A DNA stretch of 64,000 nucleotides from Kofleriaceae bacterium (GTDB lineage: Bacteria; Myxococcota_A; Polyangia; Haliangiales; Haliangiaceae): contig JASNYD010000006.1 of NCBI GenBank assembly GCA_048500355.1, positions 288,211 to 352,210 of the forward strand, given 5' to 3'. Both the position numbers and the translations under genes were made by a program. The first letter of the stretch is position 1. Each line of letters opens with the position of its first letter. The notes below the pieces were generated by a model. It was not told the DNA's origin. It did not search any database and saw nothing but the letters and a program-made list of their open reading frames with translations. Shown in pieces: positions 8,384 through 55,017 of this stretch.

Positions 8384-9511
8384 GTGGTCGCCACGCGCCG
8401 CTTGCTGTCGATCACGCTCGTGGCCACGGCCGCGGGCGCGATCACCGCCTGCCACGTCACCTCCCGCTACCAGGACACCCGCCGCGGCGAGACCCGCCGC
8501 GAGCGGGCCGACGCCGCGCCCCGCCCGCTGCCGCCGTCGATGGAGGTCAGCCCCGACGGCCGCTTCCGCTTCGTCGAGCCGTTCGTGTGCGCGATGGAGA
8601 ACGTCACCGAGCTGGCGACCTTCGACGTCGAGCGCGACCGCCCCAACGCCGCCACCCTGGTGGTCGGCGTCATCACCGCCTCGCTGGGCGCGGTGGCGGC
8701 GGTCGCCGGCTGGTCGTCCGACGACGCCGCCGGCTCGCCGCTGTCGTACCTGGGCCCGGCCGGGGTCGTGGTCGGCCTGCCGCTGGCGATCGGTCCCCTG
8801 GTCGGCCACGACACGGCCCGGGTCCCGACCGGCACCCAGGAGCTGCGGACCGCCGGCGGCGAGGAGCCGTGCGGGACCCGGCCGCTGGCGGGCACCCGCG
8901 CCACCGTGCGCTGGAGCGGGCTCGAGGTCGCCGGGACCATCGACGCCGACGGCTACTTCTCGGCCTCGCCGTTCTCGTTCGTCGACGCCTTCGACGTCGG
9001 CCGCATCCCGGCCCTGGTCCTCGACATCGAGATCGAGCGCGACGGCGCCGAGCCCCTGCCGATGGAGGTCGTGCTCGACGCCGCGGCGCTGGCCGACGCC
9101 CGCGACGGCTACTTCGCGCGCGCCGGGATCGACGCCACCGTCGAGCCGCTGCGCAAGGTGCCGCGGCTGGTGGCCGGCGACCTGCGGGTGTCGCGGGTCC
9201 GGCGCGACGCCGACCGCGGCCTGCGCCTGGTCCTGCCCCTGGCCAACGACGGCCCCGGCGACGCCATGGGCGTCCGCCTCAGCGTCAACGCCGCCGGCGC
9301 CGAGCTCGACGGCCGCTTCGTCTACGTCGGCCGGGTGCCGGCGAAGAGCCGGCGCGAGATCGACGCCGTCATCCCGATCTCGGATCGCGCCGACCGCGCC
9401 CTGGCCGGCGACGACCTCGAGCTGGCGGTGATCGTGCGCGACGCCCACGGCACCGCGCCCGACGCCCCGGTGCGCTTCCGCGGCCGGGTGCTGTCGGATC
9501 CCTCGCGCTGA
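8384..9511 (+). CDS. Hypothetical lipoprotein
   Basis: GTG start gives MVATRRLLSITLVATAAGAITAC (lipobox). The 375 aa have a non-junk composition. No recognisable domain. Confidence 0.5.
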   Translation: MVATRRLLSITLVATAAGAITACHVTSRYQDTRRGETRRERADAAPRPLPPSMEVSPDGRFRFVEPFVCAMENVTELATFDVERDRPNAATLVVGVITASLGAVAAVAGWSSDDAAGSPLSYLGPAGVVVGLPLAIGPLVGHDTARVPTGTQELRTAGGEEPCGTRPLAGTRATVRWSGLEVAGTIDADGYFSASPFSFVDAFDVGRIPALVLDIEIERDGAEPLPMEVVLDAAALADARDGYFARAGIDATVEPLRKVPRLVAGDLRVSRVRRDADRGLRLVLPLANDGPGDAMGVRLSVNAAGAELDGRFVYVGRVPAKSRREIDAVIPISDRADRALAGDDLELAVIVRDAHGTAPDAPVRFRGRVLSDPSR

Positions 9512-9513
9512 TT

Positions 9514-9895
9514 GCGGGAAACGAACGGCGAGCCCGGCTCTCCGGTCGCCCTGAGCCCTTCACCGACCGCGGTCGGAGGTGGCGGGAAACGCGCGGTCGG
9601 AGATTGCGGGAAACGAGCGGAGAGCCCCCTCTCCGGTCGCCCTGAGCGCTCCACCGACCGCGGTCGGAGATGGCGGGAAACGAACGGCGAGCCCCATCTC
9701 TCCGGTCGCCCTGAGCGCTCCACCGACCGCGGTCGGAGATGGCGGGAAACGAGCGGCGAGCTCATCTCTCCGGTCGCCCTGAGCTCCACCGACCGCGGTC
9801 GGAGATGGCGGGAAACGAGCGGAGAGCTCATCTCTCCGGTCGGCCTGAGCCGCCCGAGCGCCAGCGAGGGCGTGTCGAAGGCCGACAGGCCGCGG
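9514..9895 (+). repeat. Tandemly amplified palindromic repeat element: ~5.3 copies of a ~70 bp unit (ctctccggtcgccctgagcgctccaccgaccgcggtcggagatggcgggaaacga...) followed by a unique 3' tail. A second, inverted copy lies at 42611-42712.
   Basis: Direct reading shows the unit contains the inverted repeat ccgaccg/cggtcgg. The 3' tail ctctccggtcggcctgagccgcccgagcgccagcgagggcgtgtcgaaggccgac is almost identical to the reverse complement of 42611-42668. Confidence 0.8.
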
Positions 9896-10582: not shown

Positions 10583-11875
<1,293 letters not shown>

Positions 11876-12060: not shown

Positions 12061-14238
12061 ATGGCCACGACCCACTATCGCAGCTGCACGCTGTGCGAGG
12101 CCACCTGCGGCGTCGCGATCGAGGTCGAGGGCGACCGCGTGGTCGCCATCCGCGGCGACGACGACGACCCGTTCTCCCGCGGCTACATCTGCCCCAAGGC
12201 CACGGCCCTGGCCGACCTCCACCACGATCCGGACCGCCTGCGCCGACCGCTGGTGCGCGAGGGCGCGAGCTGGCGCGAGGCGGCGTGGGACGAGGCCTTC
12301 GAGCTGGTCGTGCGTCGCCTGCGCGAGGTCCGCGCCGCTCACGGCCCGAACGCCCTCGCCGTCTACCAGGGCAACCCCACCGTCCACAACCTCGGCCTGC
12401 TCATGCACGGCCAGGTCTTCCTGCGCAAGCTGGGCACCCGCAACGCGTACTCGGCGACCTCGGTCGATCAGCTCCCGCACATGCTGGCGGCGCTCATGAT
12501 GTTCGGCGACCAGCTCCTGATGCCGGTGCCCGACCTCGACCGCACCGACCACCTGATCATCCTCGGCGGCAACCCGCTGGTGTCCAACGGCAGCATCATG
12601 ACCGCGCCCGACGTCAAGGGCCGGCTCAAGGCCCTGCGCGCCCGCGGCGGCACCGTCACCGTCATCGATCCGCGGCGCACCGAGACCGCGGCGGTGGCCG
12701 ATCGCCACCTCTTCATCCGGCCCGGCACCGACGCCGCCTTCCTGCTGTCGCTCCTCCACGTCCTCTTCGCCGAGGGCCTGGTCCGGCCCGGGCGCCTGGC
12801 GTCGTTCACCGACGGCCTCGACGAGCTCGCCGCGATCGTCGCCGCCTACCCGCCCGAGCGCACCGCGCCGGCGACCGCGATCGCGCCCGACGACGTGCGC
12901 GCCCTGGCCCGCGCCTTCGCCGCCGCGCCCCGGGCCGCGTGCTACGGCCGCCTCGGCATGTGCACCCAGGAGCTGGGCGGGCTGTCGGCCTGGCTGTGCT
13001 ACGCGGTCAACGTCGTCACCGGCCGCCTCGACGCGCCCGGCGGGATCATGTTCACCACCCCCGCCGTCGACCTCTTGCCGCTGGCCCGCCGCCTCGGCTT
13101 CGACGGCGGCCACGCCCGCTGGACCAGCCGGGTGCGCGGGCTGCCCGAGTTCGGCGGCGAGCTGCCGCTGGCGGCCCTGGCCGAGGAGATCGCGACCCCG
13201 GGCCCGGGCCAGGTGCGCGCGCTCGTCACCAGCGCCGGCAACCCGGTGCTGTCGGCCCCGGGCGGCGGCCGCCTCGAGGCCCTCCTGCCCGGGCTCGACT
13301 TCATGGTCTCGGTCGATCCCTACCTCAACGAGACCACCCGCTTCGCCCACGTCATCCTGCCGCCGACCTCGCCGCTCGAGCACGCGCACTACGACCTGGC
13401 CTTCGCCGGCTTCTCGGTGCGCAACGTCGCCAAGTACTCGCCGCCGGTGTTCGAGCGCGGGCCCGATCAGCGCCACGACTGGGAGATCTACGCCGAGCTG
13501 GCCGCGCGCTGGTTCGTGCCCGGGAGCGCGCCCGGCCTGCTCGGTCCGCTGGGCGCGCTGGTGGCGCGCGCCGCCCGCGCCACCACCCTCGGCGTCACCC
13601 CCGAGATGGTGCTGGAGCTGGGGCTGCGCGCCGGCCCCCACGGCCTGCGCAAGGGCCAGGACGGCCTGTCGCTGGCCCGCCTGCGCGCGAACCCGCACGG
13701 CGTCGATCTGGGGCCGCTCGAGCCGCGCCTGCCCGGCCGCCTCGGCACCCGCGACCGCCGGATCGCGCTCGTGCCCGCCATCTACCGGGCCGACCTGCCG
13801 CGGCTCGACGCCCACCTCGCGGCCGCGGCGGCGCGCGCCGGCGGCGACGGCCTGGTGCTGATCGGCCGCCGCCACCTGCGCAGCAACAACTCGTGGCTGC
13901 ACAACAGCGAGCGGCTGGTGAAGGGCAAGCCGCGCTGCACGCTCCTGCTCCACCCCCGCGACGCCGCCGCCCGCGGCATCGCCAGCGGCGACGCGGTGCG
14001 CCTGGCCTCGCGCGCCGGCGAGGTCGTGGTCCCGGCCGAGGTCTCGGACGAGATCATGGCCGGCGTCGTCAGCCTGCCCCACGGCTGGGGCCACGGCCGG
14101 CCGGGCACGCGGACCCAGGTCGCCAGCGCCCACGCCGGGGCCTCGGTCAACGACGTCACGCTCCCCGAGCTGGTCGACCTGCTGTCGGGGACCGCCGCGC
14201 TGTCGGGGGTCGAGGTCACCGTCGAGCGGGTGTCGTGA
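12061..14238 (+). CDS. Molybdopterin-dependent oxidoreductase (NarB/NasA/FdhF-like monomeric molybdoenzyme with N-terminal 4Fe-4S)
   Basis: N-terminal CTLCEATCG...C (CxxCxxxC...C) Fe-S cluster motif. Molybdopterin oxidoreductase family signatures run through the whole 725 aa (…FSRGYICPKA…ILGGNPLVSNGS…MVSVDPYLNETTRFAHVILP…), and a C-terminal MopB-CT-like barrel carries the DAAARGIASGDAVRL motif. Confidence 0.85.
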   Translation: MATTHYRSCTLCEATCGVAIEVEGDRVVAIRGDDDDPFSRGYICPKATALADLHHDPDRLRRPLVREGASWREAAWDEAFELVVRRLREVRAAHGPNALAVYQGNPTVHNLGLLMHGQVFLRKLGTRNAYSATSVDQLPHMLAALMMFGDQLLMPVPDLDRTDHLIILGGNPLVSNGSIMTAPDVKGRLKALRARGGTVTVIDPRRTETAAVADRHLFIRPGTDAAFLLSLLHVLFAEGLVRPGRLASFTDGLDELAAIVAAYPPERTAPATAIAPDDVRALARAFAAAPRAACYGRLGMCTQELGGLSAWLCYAVNVVTGRLDAPGGIMFTTPAVDLLPLARRLGFDGGHARWTSRVRGLPEFGGELPLAALAEEIATPGPGQVRALVTSAGNPVLSAPGGGRLEALLPGLDFMVSVDPYLNETTRFAHVILPPTSPLEHAHYDLAFAGFSVRNVAKYSPPVFERGPDQRHDWEIYAELAARWFVPGSAPGLLGPLGALVARAARATTLGVTPEMVLELGLRAGPHGLRKGQDGLSLARLRANPHGVDLGPLEPRLPGRLGTRDRRIALVPAIYRADLPRLDAHLAAAAARAGGDGLVLIGRRHLRSNNSWLHNSERLVKGKPRCTLLLHPRDAAARGIASGDAVRLASRAGEVVVPAEVSDEIMAGVVSLPHGWGHGRPGTRTQVASAHAGASVNDVTLPELVDLLSGTAALSGVEVTVERVS

Positions 14239-38676: not shown

Positions 38677-39741
38677 CCGCTGGCTCGATCGCTCGCTGGG
38701 ACACCTCGCTCGGCTCGAGGCGCCGCTCGACGACCTCGGCCGGGCCCGCCTCGAGGCCAGCCTCGAGCGCGCGCTCGACGACGTCGGCGCGGCGGCGCCT
38801 CGGCCGGCAGCCGGCGGCGCGGCCCGGCGCCGGCGCCGGCGCTGGCTGACCGTCGCGGCCATCGGCGTCGCGACCGTGACGCTCGGCGCGGCGGCCGCCG
38901 CCGTGCTCGAGCTCGGGCGCGCCGCCCCGCCGCGGCCGGCGCCCGCGTCGCCAGGAGCGGCGCCGGAGGAGCGGGGCGGGCCGGGCCGCGGACGGTCCCC
39001 GGCGGTGGGCGCGCCGGGCGAGGCGCCCAGCGAGCTGCCGGCGACCGCGCCCGACGAGCTGCCGGCGACCGCGCCCGACGAGCTGCCGGCGACCGCGCCC
39101 GACGAGCTGCCGGCGACCGCGACCGCGGCGCGCGCGCGCCTGGCGCGCCGGCTGCGCGCGCGCCCGACGCGACGGCGACGCGCGCGCCCGACGCGCGCCT
39201 GGCTCCCGCGCCGGGCGCCCCGGCGGCGCTCGCCCCGGCGCCGGGCACCACACCGGGCGGCGACGTCGAGACCGCCGCCGCGCTGTTCGAGCGCGCCGAG
39301 CGCGCCCTCGCCGCCGGCGATCGCGACGGGGCGCGGGCCGCGCTGCGACGGCTCCTCGATCGGTTCGCGGGCGAGCCGCTCGCCGACGACGCGCGCTACC
39401 AGCTCGCGCGCCTGGCTCGCCACGATCCACCGGCGGCCCTGGCCTACCTCGACGCCATCCGCAGCCCGTCGCTCGCCGAGCCTGCCGCCTTCCTGCGCTG
39501 CGCGGTCAAGGCCGACGCCGGCCACGCCGACGCCGCGACCTGCCTGGAGGCGTTCCGCCAGACCCACCCGCGCTCGGCCCACGGCGACGACGCGCTGCTG
39601 CGGCTGGCCGAGCTCCACTTCCGCCGCGGCGACTGCGCCGGCGCCGCTCCGCTCCTCGCCGACTTCCTGCGGCGCCACCCCGACCACGCCCAGGCCCGCG
39701 CCCGGCTCGCCCGCTGCCAGGATCCGGGCGCCGCGCGCTGA
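38669..39741 (+). CDS. Anti-sigma factor (N-terminal anti-sigma region, one TM helix, Ala/Pro linker with 4 x 30 bp tandem repeats, C-terminal TPR domain); the reading frame appears disrupted between about 38950 and 39180
   Basis: ATG overlaps the sigma stop by 8 bp. Frame A gives MSDRWLDRSLGHLARLEAPLDDLGRARLE...RRWLTVAAIGVATVTLGAAAAAVL (TM) ...ELPATAPD x4, then degenerates into Arg-rich junk. Frame C from about 39120 gives ...APDARLAPAPGAPAALAPAPGTTPGGDVETAAALFERAERALAAGDRDGARAALRRLLDRFAGEPLADDARYQLARL... (TPR) and ends with TGA at 39741. The frame switch is not resolved. Confidence 0.5.
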
Positions 39742-39830: not shown

Positions 39831-40364
39831 ATGAGCGAGGCCGAGCGGTACGACGAGAGGCTCGCGGCGGCGCGCGCACACCCCGGGCTGGCGACGGCGA
39901 TGGCGACGCCGCCGACGACCTGGCTGACGCTCGCCGTCGTGGTCGTCGCGGGGATGGCGCTGTCGATCGTCCTCACCGTCACCTTCTATCCGTGGGACGA
40001 TCTCGACCGCATCCCCGAGGGCGTGCGCGCGATCCTGATGGTGTCGTGGCTGCCCACGATCGCCGCCTCGGTCGCCTCGCTCTGGCTCCTGATCGACGCC
40101 CTCCGCCTGGCCAGCCAGCCCACGCGCCACCTCCTGGCGGTCGCCGAACCCGGGCCGCGCGGGCCGGCGCCCTTCTTCCTGGACCTGGTCACCGAGGACG
40201 GCCAGCGCCACCGCTGCCGGGCCCGCCGCCGCGCGGCGTCGGTGGTCAAGCTCGGCCTGGTCACGCCGGGCGACGTCGGGATCGCCGTCTGCAAGGGCGA
40301 GGTCGTCGTCGAGTGGGTGCCGTTGCCTCCGGTGCCGGCCGGCCGCGTGTACGATCGGGTCTAG
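39831..40364 (+). CDS. Hypothetical membrane protein
   Basis: Two TM helices (WLTLAVVVVAGMALSIVLTVTF, AILMVSWLPTIAASVASLWLLI). 177 aa. Confidence 0.5.
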   Translation: MSEAERYDERLAAARAHPGLATAMATPPTTWLTLAVVVVAGMALSIVLTVTFYPWDDLDRIPEGVRAILMVSWLPTIAASVASLWLLIDALRLASQPTRHLLAVAEPGPRGPAPFFLDLVTEDGQRHRCRARRRAASVVKLGLVTPGDVGIAVCKGEVVVEWVPLPPVPAGRVYDRV

Positions 40365-40365
40365 C

Positions 40366-40495
40366 GCGGTCGGGCGCGGTCGGGCGCGGTCGGGCGCGGT
40401 CGGGCGCGGTCGGGCGCGGCAGGCGCGGCAGGCGCGGCAGGCGCGGTCTGGCGCGGCGGGCGCGGTCTGGCGCGGCGGACGCGGTCGGGCGCGCC
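40366..40495. repeat. 10-bp tandem microsatellite (gcgcggtcgg x6, gcgcggcagg x3, and degenerate units) between convergent genes
   Basis: Read directly: ctagcgcggtcgggcgcggtcgggcgcggtcgggcgcggtcgggcgcggtcgggcgcggcaggcgcggcaggcgcggcaggcgcggtctggcgcggcgggcgcggtctggcgcggcggacgcggtcgggcg. Confidence 0.7.
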
Positions 40496-40510
40496 GGGCG
40501 GTTCGACATC

Positions 40511-41695: not shown

Positions 41696-41865
41696 CGTGC
41701 GCTCCTTGCCGGGATCCGGGTGCGCGCCGCGATCCGCGCCGGCGCCGCCCGCACGTCGACGCGCGGGTACGGCGGGCTGGAGGGTCGGCGCCTGGATCCG
41801 TATCTGCCCCAGGGGGCGCCGCCAGGGGAAGCCCCCCGCCTCCCGATCTTGACAGGTGAGCTGTC

Positions 41866-42372
41866 ATGATCCTCGATCGAGCGATGCGGTCGCGCCCCCC
41901 TCGCAAGCTGCGCAAGCGCCACGTCGGCGGTGAGCTCCGCGCGGTCGTCGACGAGACCATCGCCCTGTTCCATCGCGTGCGCTGGGTCGCCGAGCAGATC
42001 TACGGCGAGGAGGGACGCTCGACCGCGCGCCGCGGCATCCTGCGCGGCCTCGCCCGCTACGGCCCGCGCACGGTGCCCCAGCTCGCCCGCTCGCGCTCGG
42101 TGACCCGCCAGCACACCCAGAGCGTGGTCGACGAGCTCGCCGCCGCCGGCCTGGTGACGCTGGTCGACAATCCCGCCCACGCCCGCTCCCGCCTGGTCCG
42201 GATCACGCCCCGCGGCGCCGCCCTGGTGGCGCGCCTCGACGCGGTGGACGCCCGGGTCCTGGCCGCGATCGGCCACGGCCTGACCACGCCCGCCCTCGCC
42301 GTCACCGTGCGCACCCTGCGCGCCGTCCGCGAGGCCTTCGAGGACGAGGCCCGCTGGCGCGCCGCGCTGTGA
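41866..42372 (+). CDS. MarR-family transcriptional regulator
   Basis: Winged-HTH core GILRGLARYGPRTVPQLARSRSVTRQHTQSVVDELAAAGLVTLVDNPAHARSRLVRITPRGAAL. Divergent from the acyl-CoA dehydrogenase gene. Confidence 0.8.
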   Translation: MILDRAMRSRPPRKLRKRHVGGELRAVVDETIALFHRVRWVAEQIYGEEGRSTARRGILRGLARYGPRTVPQLARSRSVTRQHTQSVVDELAAAGLVTLVDNPAHARSRLVRITPRGAALVARLDAVDARVLAAIGHGLTTPALAVTVRTLRAVREAFEDEARWRAAL

Positions 42373-42610
42373 GCCCCGCCGCCGCCTCGGCCGGCCGCCG
42401 CCGTGCCGTACGCCTCGGCCGCCGCCGCCGCGCGCCGCCGCGGCGCCGCCGCGCGCCCACGCCCGATGTGGCGACTCAGCCAGCCGGTTGCCGCTCTGCC
42501 GGCGACGTCCGCCCGTTCGACCTCGCAGCGATTCCGACGCCGAGACGCCGCGAAGGCCCTGTCGGAGGTCCTCGACCTGCGCCAAACCTCCCAACGAACG
42601 GCGTCGGCAC

Positions 42611-42712
42611 GTCGGCCTTCGACACGCCCTCGCTGGCGCTCGGGCGGCTCAGGCCGACCGGAGAGATTGGCTCGCCGTTTGTTTCCCGCAACCTCCGACC
42701 GCGGTCGGTGAA
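42611..42712 (-). repeat. Second, inverted copy of the palindromic dispersed element seen at 9514-9895 (single unit plus tail)
   Basis: gtcggccttcgacacgccctcgctggcgctcgggcggctcaggccgaccggagag matches the reverse complement of 9841-9895 base for base. The following ...gtttcccgc..ctccgaccgcggtcggtg matches the repeat unit with a few substitutions. Confidence 0.75.
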
Positions 42713-42740
42713 GAGCTCAGGGTGTGCGGGTCTCTTCTGA

Positions 42741-43690
42741 TCCGGGTCCGAGCTCGGATCCGAGCCCGAGCCCGAATCCGAATCCGAGCCCGAATCCGAA
42801 TCCGAATCCGAGTCCGAATCCGAATCCGAATCCGAGCCCGAGACCGAGACCGAATCCGAATCCGAGTCCGAGACCGAATCCGAGCCCGAGACCGAGACCG
42901 AATCCGAGCCCGAGACCGAGACCGAATCCAGCCCGAGCCCGGATCCGAGCCCGAGACCGAATCCAGCCCGAGCCCGGATCCGAGCCCGAGCCCGGATCCG
43001 AGCCCGAGCTCGAAATCCGAGACCGAGTCCGAGACCGAATCCGAATCCGAGCCCGCGACCGAATCCGAGCCCGAGACCGAGACCGAATCCGAGACCGAAT
43101 CCGAATCCGAGTCCGAGACCGAATCCGAGACCGAGACCGAGACCGAATCCAGCCCGAGCCCGGATCCGAGCCCGAGCCCGGATCCGAGCCCGAGCTCGGA
43201 TCCGAGCCCGGATCCGAGCCCGAATCCGAATCCGAGCCCGAATCCGAATCCGAGACCGAATCCGAATCCGAGCCCGAATCCGAGCCCGGATCCGAGCCCG
43301 AGCCCGAGCCCGAGTCCGAGCCCGAATCCGAATCCGAGCCCGAGCCCGAGTCCGAGCCCGAATCCGAATCCGAGCCCGAGACCGAGTCCGAGCCCGACTC
43401 CGAGACCGAATCCGAGACCGAATCCGAATCCGAGCCCGAATCCGAATCCGAGCCCGAATCCGAATCCGAGCCCGAGCCCGGATCCGAGCCCGAGTCCGAG
43501 CCCGACTTCGAGACCGAATCCGAGACCGAATCCGAATCCGAGCCCGAATCCGAATCCGAATCCGAGCCCGAATCCGAATCCGAGCCCGAATCCGAATCCG
43601 AGCCCGAATCCGAATCCGAGCCCGAATCCGAGCCCGAATCCGAATCCGAGCCCGAATCCGAATCCGAGCCCGAGACCGAATCCGAGCCCG
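42741..43690. repeat. ~950 bp hexanucleotide microsatellite (CCGAGC/CCGAAT/CCGAGA-type units, about 155 units) in an intergenic region
   Basis: Direct reading shows tccgagcccgaatccgaatccgagcccgagaccga... continuously. Every translation frame switches between [18 protein letters not shown] (or on the other strand GFGLGL, SDSG) motifs, so unit-level indels break any single frame. This is interpreted as non-coding. Confidence 0.85.
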
Positions 43691-43699
43691 AACGCTCCG

Positions 43700-43940
43700 G
43701 GCCCCGCGCCGCCGGTGCACGCCGTGCCTCGGCTCGAATCGGCGGATGTCGGGGCGCCCCGCGCGGCCGGTGCACGCCGTGCCTCGGCTCGAATCGGCGG
43801 ATGTCGGGGCGACCGGGCCCCGCGCGGCCGGTGCACGCCGTGCCTCGACTCGAATCGGCGGATGTCGGGGCGCCCCGTGCCGCCGGTGTACGCCGTGCCT
43901 CGGCTCGAATCGGCGGATGTCGGGGCGCCCGGCCCCGCGC
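43700..43940. repeat. Four tandem copies of a ~57-62 bp unit (ccggtgcacgccgtgcctcggctcgaatcggcggatgtcggggcgccccgcgcgg)
   Basis: The unit is read directly four times with small variations (units begin near 43712, 43768, 43830, 43885). A short gcgaggcgccgc duplication follows. Confidence 0.75.
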
Positions 43941-44005
43941 CTGGGCGAGGCGCCGCCCCGCGCCGGGCGAGGCGCCGCGCGGCGGATGGCCAGGCGTCCG
44001 GCGCG

Positions 44006-45208
<1,203 letters not shown>

Positions 45209-45217
45209 GTCAGCCGA

Positions 45218-47266
<2,049 letters not shown>

Positions 47267-54832: not shown

Positions 54833-54918
54833 GGCGCCTATGACGAGGCCGCGCGCCGCGACGGTACAGACGATCTGCGCGCGACGGATCGATCGCCGAC
54901 CGGGTCCGGACGGCGCGC

Positions 54919-55017
54919 CGGCCGCGCCGTCGAGGTTCGACCGCGGCGCCCCGGCCGCGCCGTCGAGGTTCGACCGCGGCGCCCCGGCCGCGCCGTCGAG
55001 GTTCGACCGCGGCGCCG
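54919..55017. repeat. Three tandem 33-bp direct repeats (ggccgcgccgtcgaggttcgaccgcggcgcccc), each with an imperfect internal palindrome, in the folE / DUF4397 divergent intergenic region
   Basis: Read directly. gcgccgtcga..tcgaccgcggcgc forms an imperfect hairpin within each unit. Confidence 0.7.

Follow-up and report, generated by a model that had tools for sequence, protein, structure and literature searches.

Two convergent genes, encoding a MarR-family regulator and a Ser/Thr protein kinase, are separated by a gap of 1634 nt (~1.6 kb) in the 64,000-nt stretch of DNA from an uncultured myxobacterium (Kofleriaceae) analyzed here (hereafter the window, to whose positions all coordinates refer unless another contig is named). 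The middle of the gap is occupied by a long hexanucleotide tandem array, and the remainder of the gap is also repetitive (Table 1). Beyond the MarR gene, as seen from the array, is an acyl-CoA dehydrogenase gene, and on the opposite side the kinase gene is paired with an ABC-F ATPase gene. Part of the left flank of the array (42611-42722) is a 112-nt copy, on the opposite strand and at 92% identity (blastn), of the end of an element amplified at 9510-9886, where a 66-nt unit is present in ~5 tandem copies between two convergent genes; judged from these sequences, the unit appears to be a dispersed element able to amplify in tandem. The repeats of the right flank (43701-44005) lie directly 3' of the kinase stop codon and are GC-rich and hairpin-prone (fold z-score -2.35), and they may represent a candidate kinase terminator or a REP-like element. 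A short-read contig of the same strain (L002) ends within their 43701-43938 portion. Scanning of 41800-44300 revealed no sigma-70-like promoter or intrinsic terminator, and Rfam at gathering thresholds gave no match in the whole window. Elsewhere in the window, at 39023-39241, two adjoining 24-nt tandem repeats (x 4.3 and x 4.9), one frame of which reads as ELPATAPD repeats in a long ORF, probably constitute a coding low-complexity repeat.

Table 1. Features of the gap between the MarR and kinase genes and of its neighborhood (window positions).
Feature	Position	Strand	Basis
MarR-family regulator gene, pointing toward the array	41866-42372	+	Pfam PF12802
Left non-coding flank: CCG-rich tract (42376-42457) and dispersed-element copy (42611-42722)	42373-42740	.	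Tandem Repeats Finder; blastn; GC-by-codon-phase spread ≤0.06
Hexanucleotide array (CCGARN), ~158 copies; 18-nt unit CCGAAT-CCGAAT-CCGAGC	42741-43691	+	Tandem Repeats Finder, pattern scan, unit census
Phase block A, 31 units	42742-42927	+	Spacing and phase analysis
First -1 indel, CCGAATCC^AGCCCG, phase shift	42928-42932	+	CCG anchors 11 nt apart
Phase block B, 5 units	42933-42962	+	Spacing and phase analysis
62-nt exact internal duplicate of 43137-43198, offset 186, containing a -1 indel	42951-43012	+	Self-comparison
Second -1 indel, sequence context same as first	42963-42967	+	Spacing and phase analysis
Phase block C, 7 units	42968-43009	+	Spacing and phase analysis
+1 indel (GAGCTCGAAATCCGAG)	43010-43016	+	Spacing and phase analysis
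Phase block D, 22 units	43017-43148	+	Spacing and phase analysis
Third -1 indel	43149-43153	+	Spacing and phase analysis
Phase block E, 89 units, 534 nt = 178 codons, longest in-phase block; PNPS on +, SD/SG on -	43154-43687	+	Spacing and phase analysis
Right non-coding flank: 55-nt tandem repeat x 4.2, then 22-nt repeats to 44005	43701-43938	.	Tandem Repeats Finder; no codon periodicity
Ser/Thr protein kinase gene, pointing toward the array	44006-45208	-	Pfam PF00069
ABC-F ATPase gene, conserved pair with the kinase gene	45218-47266		Pair kept in ~20 MAGs

Tandem Repeats Finder resolves the array into 158.8 copies of a 6-nt period (74% matches, score 727), and an 18-nt higher-order unit repeated 54.7 times (score 815) fits the identical hexamer array. 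The original prediction, made from the letters of the window, had proposed a (CCGARN)n microsatellite of about 155 units, and these values bear it out. So does a scan of the 64-kb window with a four-unit degenerate pattern, (CCGARN)4, with ≤2 mismatches allowed: all 138 matches fall on the plus strand and within the array, compared to 0.04 expected from dinucleotide shuffles, and the same scan found the hexamer family nowhere else in the window. Parsing on CCG anchors yields 154 intact units (58 CCGAAT, 50 CCGAGC, 23 CCGAGA, 8 CCGAGT, 8 CCGGAT and seven others of rarer forms), in which the CCGA core is nearly invariant and the last two positions carry the variation. The GC content of the array is 65.7% versus 75.8% for the window. 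The head-to-tail repetition of a short unit (1-9 nt) that characterizes bacterial simple sequence repeats (SSRs) and VNTRs is present here far above chance; the array is real and unusually long for a bacterium, an extreme example of an otherwise ordinary kind of bacterial SSR. The near-invariance of the CCGA core could stem from selection (on a Pro codon or a binding motif) rather than from neutral slippage.

Short tandem repeats are depleted in bacteria overall, and their density in prokaryotes rises with GC content (PMC12699852). The earlier claim that such arrays are essentially unknown at 70% GC was too strong, given both this dependence on GC and the presence of two long arrays in another Kofleriaceae MAG (L035), one of ~430 nt (GGGCGGA/GGCGGA; L035 positions 11066-11497) and one of 345 nt (CGGCCCT; 12303-12648). 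The two L035 arrays are in inverted orientation. They and another inverted repeat lie on either side of a small gene whose product falls in the 23S rRNA-intervening-sequence protein family (PF05635, E 4e-13); from its layout, this locus looks like a cassette bounded by inverted microsatellites.

The 6-nt register of the window array is interrupted by four single-base indels (-1 near 42928, -1 near 42963, +1 near 43011 and -1 near 43149), as determined from the spacing of the CCG anchors and phase analysis. Five phase blocks result, and none of the six frames runs through the array as a single frame. All six frames are free of stop codons across the array, and for this reason gene callers can be misled by it. 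Because the four 1-nt indels split the array into phase blocks, plus-strand ORFs shift from PNPS to RIRARD to EPGSEP motifs and minus-strand ORFs shift from SD/SG to RIR to GFGL. That the frames switch and that none is intact had been correctly predicted; the cause given, unit-level indels, was not correct, as the gain or loss of 6-nt units would preserve the frame. Similarly, the in-frame (SD/SG)n run placed on the minus strand exists, but it spans 178 codons rather than the ~190 residues originally estimated. The three -1 events have a common sequence context, CCGAATCC^AGCCCGAGCCCGGATCC, and the identical context is also present once without the deletion, at 43460-43486. One of these indels lies within the exact 62-nt internal duplicate and would appear to have been copied by segmental duplication inside the array. 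Given the exact duplicate, the single context of the three deletions and the undeleted copy of that context, we regard the indels as copied sequence and not as errors in the reads, be they random or systematic.

When GC content is broken down by codon phase, genes stand clearly apart from non-genes in this genome: the spread between phases is 0.3-0.5 in genes (maximum 0.92-1.0) versus ≤0.08 at 42400-42700 and 43600-43900, and codon periodicity is absent from both flanks of the array. We found no start codon or signal peptide for the array frames, no family match for the small ORFs of the left flank and no trace in the window flanks of a domain, signal peptide or C-terminal sorting tail. Furthermore, the gap between the two genes is free of called genes in an independently assembled contig (L001, discussed below). 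The broken frames, the flanks without codon periodicity and the empty gap in the independent assembly support the original view that the array is most likely non-coding. A C-terminal extension of the kinase by frameshift was also considered and ruled out, since the stop codon is positioned as in the orthologues and the flank lacks codon periodicity.

The minus-strand SD frame matches the NCBIfam models for ClfA, ClfB, SdrC and SdrD at 70-77 bits, where the cut-offs are 999-2500; with the ClfA and Sdr models its E-values are 1e-20 to 1e-22. The matches to these MSCRAMM models are confined to the SD region of each profile, and a plus-strand ORF matches the same models. Because only the SD region is matched, the bit scores fall below the cut-offs and the plus-strand ORF matches too, this signal is compositional. 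The 103 codons upstream in the SD frame encode Arg/Pro/Ala-rich repeat sequence without a signal peptide or domain. These results agree with the original description of the frame as reminiscent of serine-aspartate surface proteins, with neither an N-terminal domain nor a start. On the plus strand, a protein-database search with the PNPS frame (178 residues) is uninformative on homology: the hits were all generic low-complexity proteins rich in Pro, drawn from every kingdom, with algae among them.

In one-genome-per-species collections, the best matches of the kinase are from Kofleriaceae MAGs (Myxococcota), at up to 81% identity, and the ABC-F/kinase gene pair is kept in ~20 of these. Downstream of the kinase, the MarR and acyl-CoA dehydrogenase genes are found in none (0 of ~20) of these relatives. 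In the closest of them (L039, kinase 81% identical), a convergent gene starts right at the kinase stop codon, with no repeat. From L039 and the ~20-relative comparison, the repeat-filled gap is therefore lineage-specific and located at a break in synteny.

A second assembly of the locus is provided by L001, an ENA MEGAHIT k141 short-read contig of the same strain in which the kinase and MarR proteins are identical to those of the window. Over ~15 kb there are 0 SNPs between the two, and all differences fall in three tandem arrays. In L001 the hexamer array is shorter by 754 nt (~192 nt, or ~32 units versus ~158), although as a short-read contig it may be collapsed there. The L001 junction falls within a 41-nt repeat common to positions ~42812 and ~43526. 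L001 covers the outer 72 and 165 nt of the array only, by which both ends are independently confirmed; all four indels are located in the interior. The other two differences are found at a 10-mer array at 40364-40500 (GCGCGGTCGG x 13.5), where L001 has two units (20 nt) fewer, and at a 33-mer array at 54911-55016 (x 3.2), where it has one unit (33 nt) fewer. As both of these arrays can be spanned by 150-nt reads, their differences hint at real repeat-number polymorphism. The 126-unit difference at the hexamer array could be either real length variation in a near-clonal population or the product of collapse in short-read (de Bruijn) assembly. Of the assemblies located through exact copies of the MarR and kinase proteins, L001 alone extends across the array; the other short-read (Logan) contigs of the strain, including L002 and L089, end in the flanking repeats. 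In Myxococcus xanthus, the per-site indel rate at short tandem repeats is ~820-fold higher than at other sites (PMC11069108), with which the restriction of the L001 differences to repeats agrees. A practical consequence is that arrays of this kind cause collapse or breaks in short-read metagenome assemblies and so stay invisible in most MAGs.

The two strands of the array differ strongly in their predicted self-pairing. Folding of the block 43154-43690 was compared with that of shuffled controls for both strands, as RNA and as DNA. The minus (G-rich) strand as RNA is predicted to reach -393.6 kcal/mol versus -272.5 kcal/mol for shuffles (z -16.8), and as DNA it gives a z-score of -8.8, whereas the plus (C-rich) strand gives -1.6 as RNA and +3.5 as DNA. 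The G-rich strand (TCGGAT/TCGGGC) is almost fully self-complementary if G-T/G-U wobble pairs are counted, and in 75% of units the two variable positions read AT or GC, dinucleotides that are self-complementary. Visual inspection of the minus strand places most GGG tracts 12-18 nt from one another, and folding predicts wobble hairpins. Among other candidate identities for the array, a CsrA-type GGA sponge was set aside, as folding predicts that helices would hide the GGA motifs, and a telomere-like repeat was ruled out, as the array is internal, with contiguous sequence to either side.

With the exact 36-nt higher-order motif as query, the hexamer family was found in five JGI metagenome contigs (L083-L087; 70-75% GC). 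These have the array alone in common with the window, with no homology in the flanks, and for lack of flanks common to the loci a mobile element with conserved ends was ruled out. In three of the five contigs the array reaches the end of the contig, which would be expected of assemblies breaking at the array. In L086, the array is read in a Pro-Asn/Pro-Ser frame that matches the phase of the coding DNA to either side, and belongs to a protein of a 29-member family. Proteins of this family combine a signal peptide and a conserved Cys-rich domain with a Pro-rich linker, which is hypervariable, and a Gly-Cys/transmembrane/RRR tail. The linker of an L086 homologue is also made of CCGAGT/CCGAGC/CCCGGT hexamers. 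Two members of the family are named MYXO-CTERM domain-containing protein by JGI, and the tail is conserved (invariant Cys, RR); the NCBIfam scan of L086 gave no MYXO-CTERM score for the tail, and the label is thus a putative one, resting on the two homologue names and the conserved Cys/RR tail. At ~560-700 of L086 (minus strand), no stop codon follows the Gly-Cys/transmembrane/CRR tail of the PNPS-linker ORF, which continues in frame into an apparent lipoprotein signal peptide (…AFSLGGC) of the next gene, while the homologues end at RRR; a gene fusion, the loss of a stop codon or an error of assembly could account for this.

In the remaining contigs, the array extends the ORF of a small membrane protein in the PNPS frame (L085), shares the phase of a sulfatase ORF and is likewise in the PNPS frame (L087), separates divergent genes and falls in a Glu-Ser/Glu-Pro frame with respect to the downstream ORF (L084) or begins 5 nt past a YaeQ stop codon (L083). 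The PNPS frame is thus on the coding strand in three of the five arrays, against an expectation of ~1 in 6 per locus (binomial p ~0.04). On this basis, the CCGAAT/CCGAGC family is often translated as a linker, and PNPS rather than SD is the meaningful frame, which shifts the emphasis of the original prediction away from the minus-strand SD frame: where the family is translated elsewhere, it is in the plus-strand Pro-Asn/Pro-Ser frame. A related hexamer in a different frame occurs in a Myxococcales protein (L078, 12428-12480), in which (CCCGAA/CCCGAG)9 encodes a (Pro-Glu)n linker preceding a transmembrane segment.

Our preferred reading, to which we assign a probability of roughly 0.7, is that the window array is a non-coding, length-unstable SSR, most likely a tolerated product of slippage in a dispensable gap between convergent 3' ends. 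The array would have grown by replication slippage and unequal recombination over several rounds, which would also have duplicated the frame-breaking 1-nt indels. Folding predictions point to slipped hairpins on the G-rich strand, and not on the C-rich strand, as the likely driver. Large expansions and contractions may be tolerated at this site because neither a promoter nor a coding frame lies within it, and the array is most probably without a dedicated function of its own. In related bacteria, units of this type code for the (Pro-Asn/Pro-Ser)n linkers of secreted proteins, and the copy in the window was possibly seeded from one of these.

Several alternatives to a tolerated, non-coding slippage product bear on whether the array is as long as it appears and whether it is expressed. 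It is unlikely that the length of the array, or part of its internal structure, is an assembly artefact, with a true length nearer 32 units or with 1-nt indels that are uncorrected long-read errors in a repeat beyond polishing by short reads. The ~192-nt array of L001, joined at the shared 41-nt repeat, and the confinement of the indels to the interior, beyond L001 coverage, are what an artefact would leave. De Bruijn assemblers, however, typically collapse repeats rather than the reverse, and other short-read contigs (L002, L089) end at these repeats; moreover, across ~15 kb of unique sequence the window shows no errors relative to L001, which also confirms both array ends independently, and the interior has a distinct, non-periodic higher-order structure in which the undeleted context at 43460-43486 opposes systematic error. 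Translation of the array, as an SD-repeat surface protein from the minus strand or as a Pro-rich/acidic repeat protein from the plus strand, is highly improbable. The six open frames and the E-values of the SD frame against the ClfA and Sdr models would favor it, but the latter signal is compositional, the frames are broken four times between non-coding flanks and the 103 upstream SD-frame codons supply no signal peptide. In addition, Asp would mostly be encoded by GAT, yet the genes of this genome are 92-100% GC at third codon positions, and the agreement of the kinase stop position with its orthologues argues against translation as well.

The array might instead act, or have once acted, as something more than a tolerated repeat. 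As a functional nucleic-acid element, it could lengthen the kinase transcript at its 3' end by a highly structured segment (a terminator, stabilizer, RNase III substrate or protein sponge) or be a protein-bound DNA array. The minus-strand RNA would be the sense strand for kinase read-through and is predicted to form near-continuous helices (z -16.8), the G-rich strand begins 3-5 nt after a stop codon in L083 and L085, and the gap lacks a canonical terminator. We nonetheless judge such a role distinctly unlikely: the orthologous loci are without the array, a 126-unit difference in copy number is apparently tolerated, and no Rfam family is matched in the window. The helical repeat expected of protein-binding arrays is matched by neither the 6-nt nor the 18-nt period, and a convergent gap places the G-rich strand downstream of one gene in either orientation. 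An alternative concerning origin, compatible with a non-coding array today, is that the array is the (Pro-Asn/Pro-Ser)n linker of a decayed gene, which expanded once freed from constraint; we hold this to be possible but doubtful. It is suggested by the CCGAAT/CCGAGC units of L085, L086 and L087, which are read as PNPS and share the phase of the neighboring coding DNA (p ~0.04), by the hypervariability of the linker across the 29 members of the L086 family and its construction from CCGAGT/CCGAGC in a homologue, and by the near-invariant CCG (Pro) core of the window array. Against it, the window flanks contain other repeats without codon periodicity and no trace of a domain, signal peptide or sorting tail, and they share no homology with those of L083-L087.

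More broadly, and only tentatively, we propose that this Kofleriaceae lineage may carry a dispersed CCGAAT/CCGAGC satellite with two lives: in the genes of secreted proteins it would furnish evolvable (Pro-Asn/Pro-Ser)n linkers and tails, and in non-coding DNA it would undergo large, hairpin-driven expansions and contractions. One DNA repeat can in this manner act as raw material for disordered protein linkers. If the length of the window array and the difference between 32 and 158 units are real, the array is among the longest short-unit repeats described in a bacterium, and it offers a natural case for the study of large expansions, strand-asymmetric hairpins and escape from mismatch repair in a very GC-rich prokaryote.

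Reports of bacterial repeat families with 6-9-nt units are rare, those studied best being GGGAATC in Xanthomonas (up to 26 units) and GGGGA(C/T)T heptamers in Nostoc (up to 179 nt), both mostly intergenic (Rehm et al. 2015, PMC4692102). The hexamer family described here resembles these often intergenic, copy-number-variable SSRs in that one unit family is present at several loci (here, metagenome contigs) of large-genome environmental bacteria and has one G-rich, structure-prone strand. It differs in that the window array, at ~158 units and 950 nt, far exceeds 26 units or 179 nt, in that its unit is a hexamer without a G4 motif, predicted to form a wobble-paired hairpin rather than a quadruplex, and in that part of the CCGAAT/CCGAGC family is translated as linkers. 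As in bacterial VNTRs and slippage microsatellites, the copies are arranged head to tail; their number differs between two otherwise identical assemblies, through real variation or through short-read collapse. Unlike in typical bacterial microsatellites, the array is far longer, the apparent change is one of 126 units rather than of single units, and there is a degenerate higher-order structure with copied frameshifts. With the SSR contingency loci of host-adapted pathogens it shares a short-unit repeat, here putatively hypermutable, but it is found in an environmental myxobacterium, between two 3' ends and not in a promoter or 5' coding region, and its hexamer unit preserves the frame; as the array lies between convergent stop codons, with no promoter-like site found, phase variation is not indicated.

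Among protein-coding repeats, the Pro-rich linkers preceding MYXO-CTERM-type tails in L086 and its homologue use the same hexamers (CCG-AAT, CCG-AGC, CCG-AGT), whereas the window array has a broken frame and no surrounding ORF, domain or tail; an array in frame between a folded domain and a tail is found in L086 only. The minus-strand (SD/SG)n frame of 178 codons recalls the staphylococcal Clf/Sdr MSCRAMMs, but the organism is of a Gram-negative lineage, and the frame has no signal peptide, A domain or LPXTG anchor, matches in composition only and provides neither a single intact ORF nor a full-length match above the NCBIfam cut-off. Expandable repeats of eukaryotes, such as CGG/CCG and CTG/CAG, have one strand that forms hairpins with non-Watson-Crick pairs and undergo large length changes, much as is predicted for the array; in the case described here the host is bacterial, the unit is a hexamer and the proposed mechanism of expansion derives from folding predictions. 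Should the two lives proposed for the satellite prove true, a change of 126 units within a population that shows 0 SNPs over 15 kb would constitute a bacterial counterpart of the eukaryotic repeat-expansion loci.
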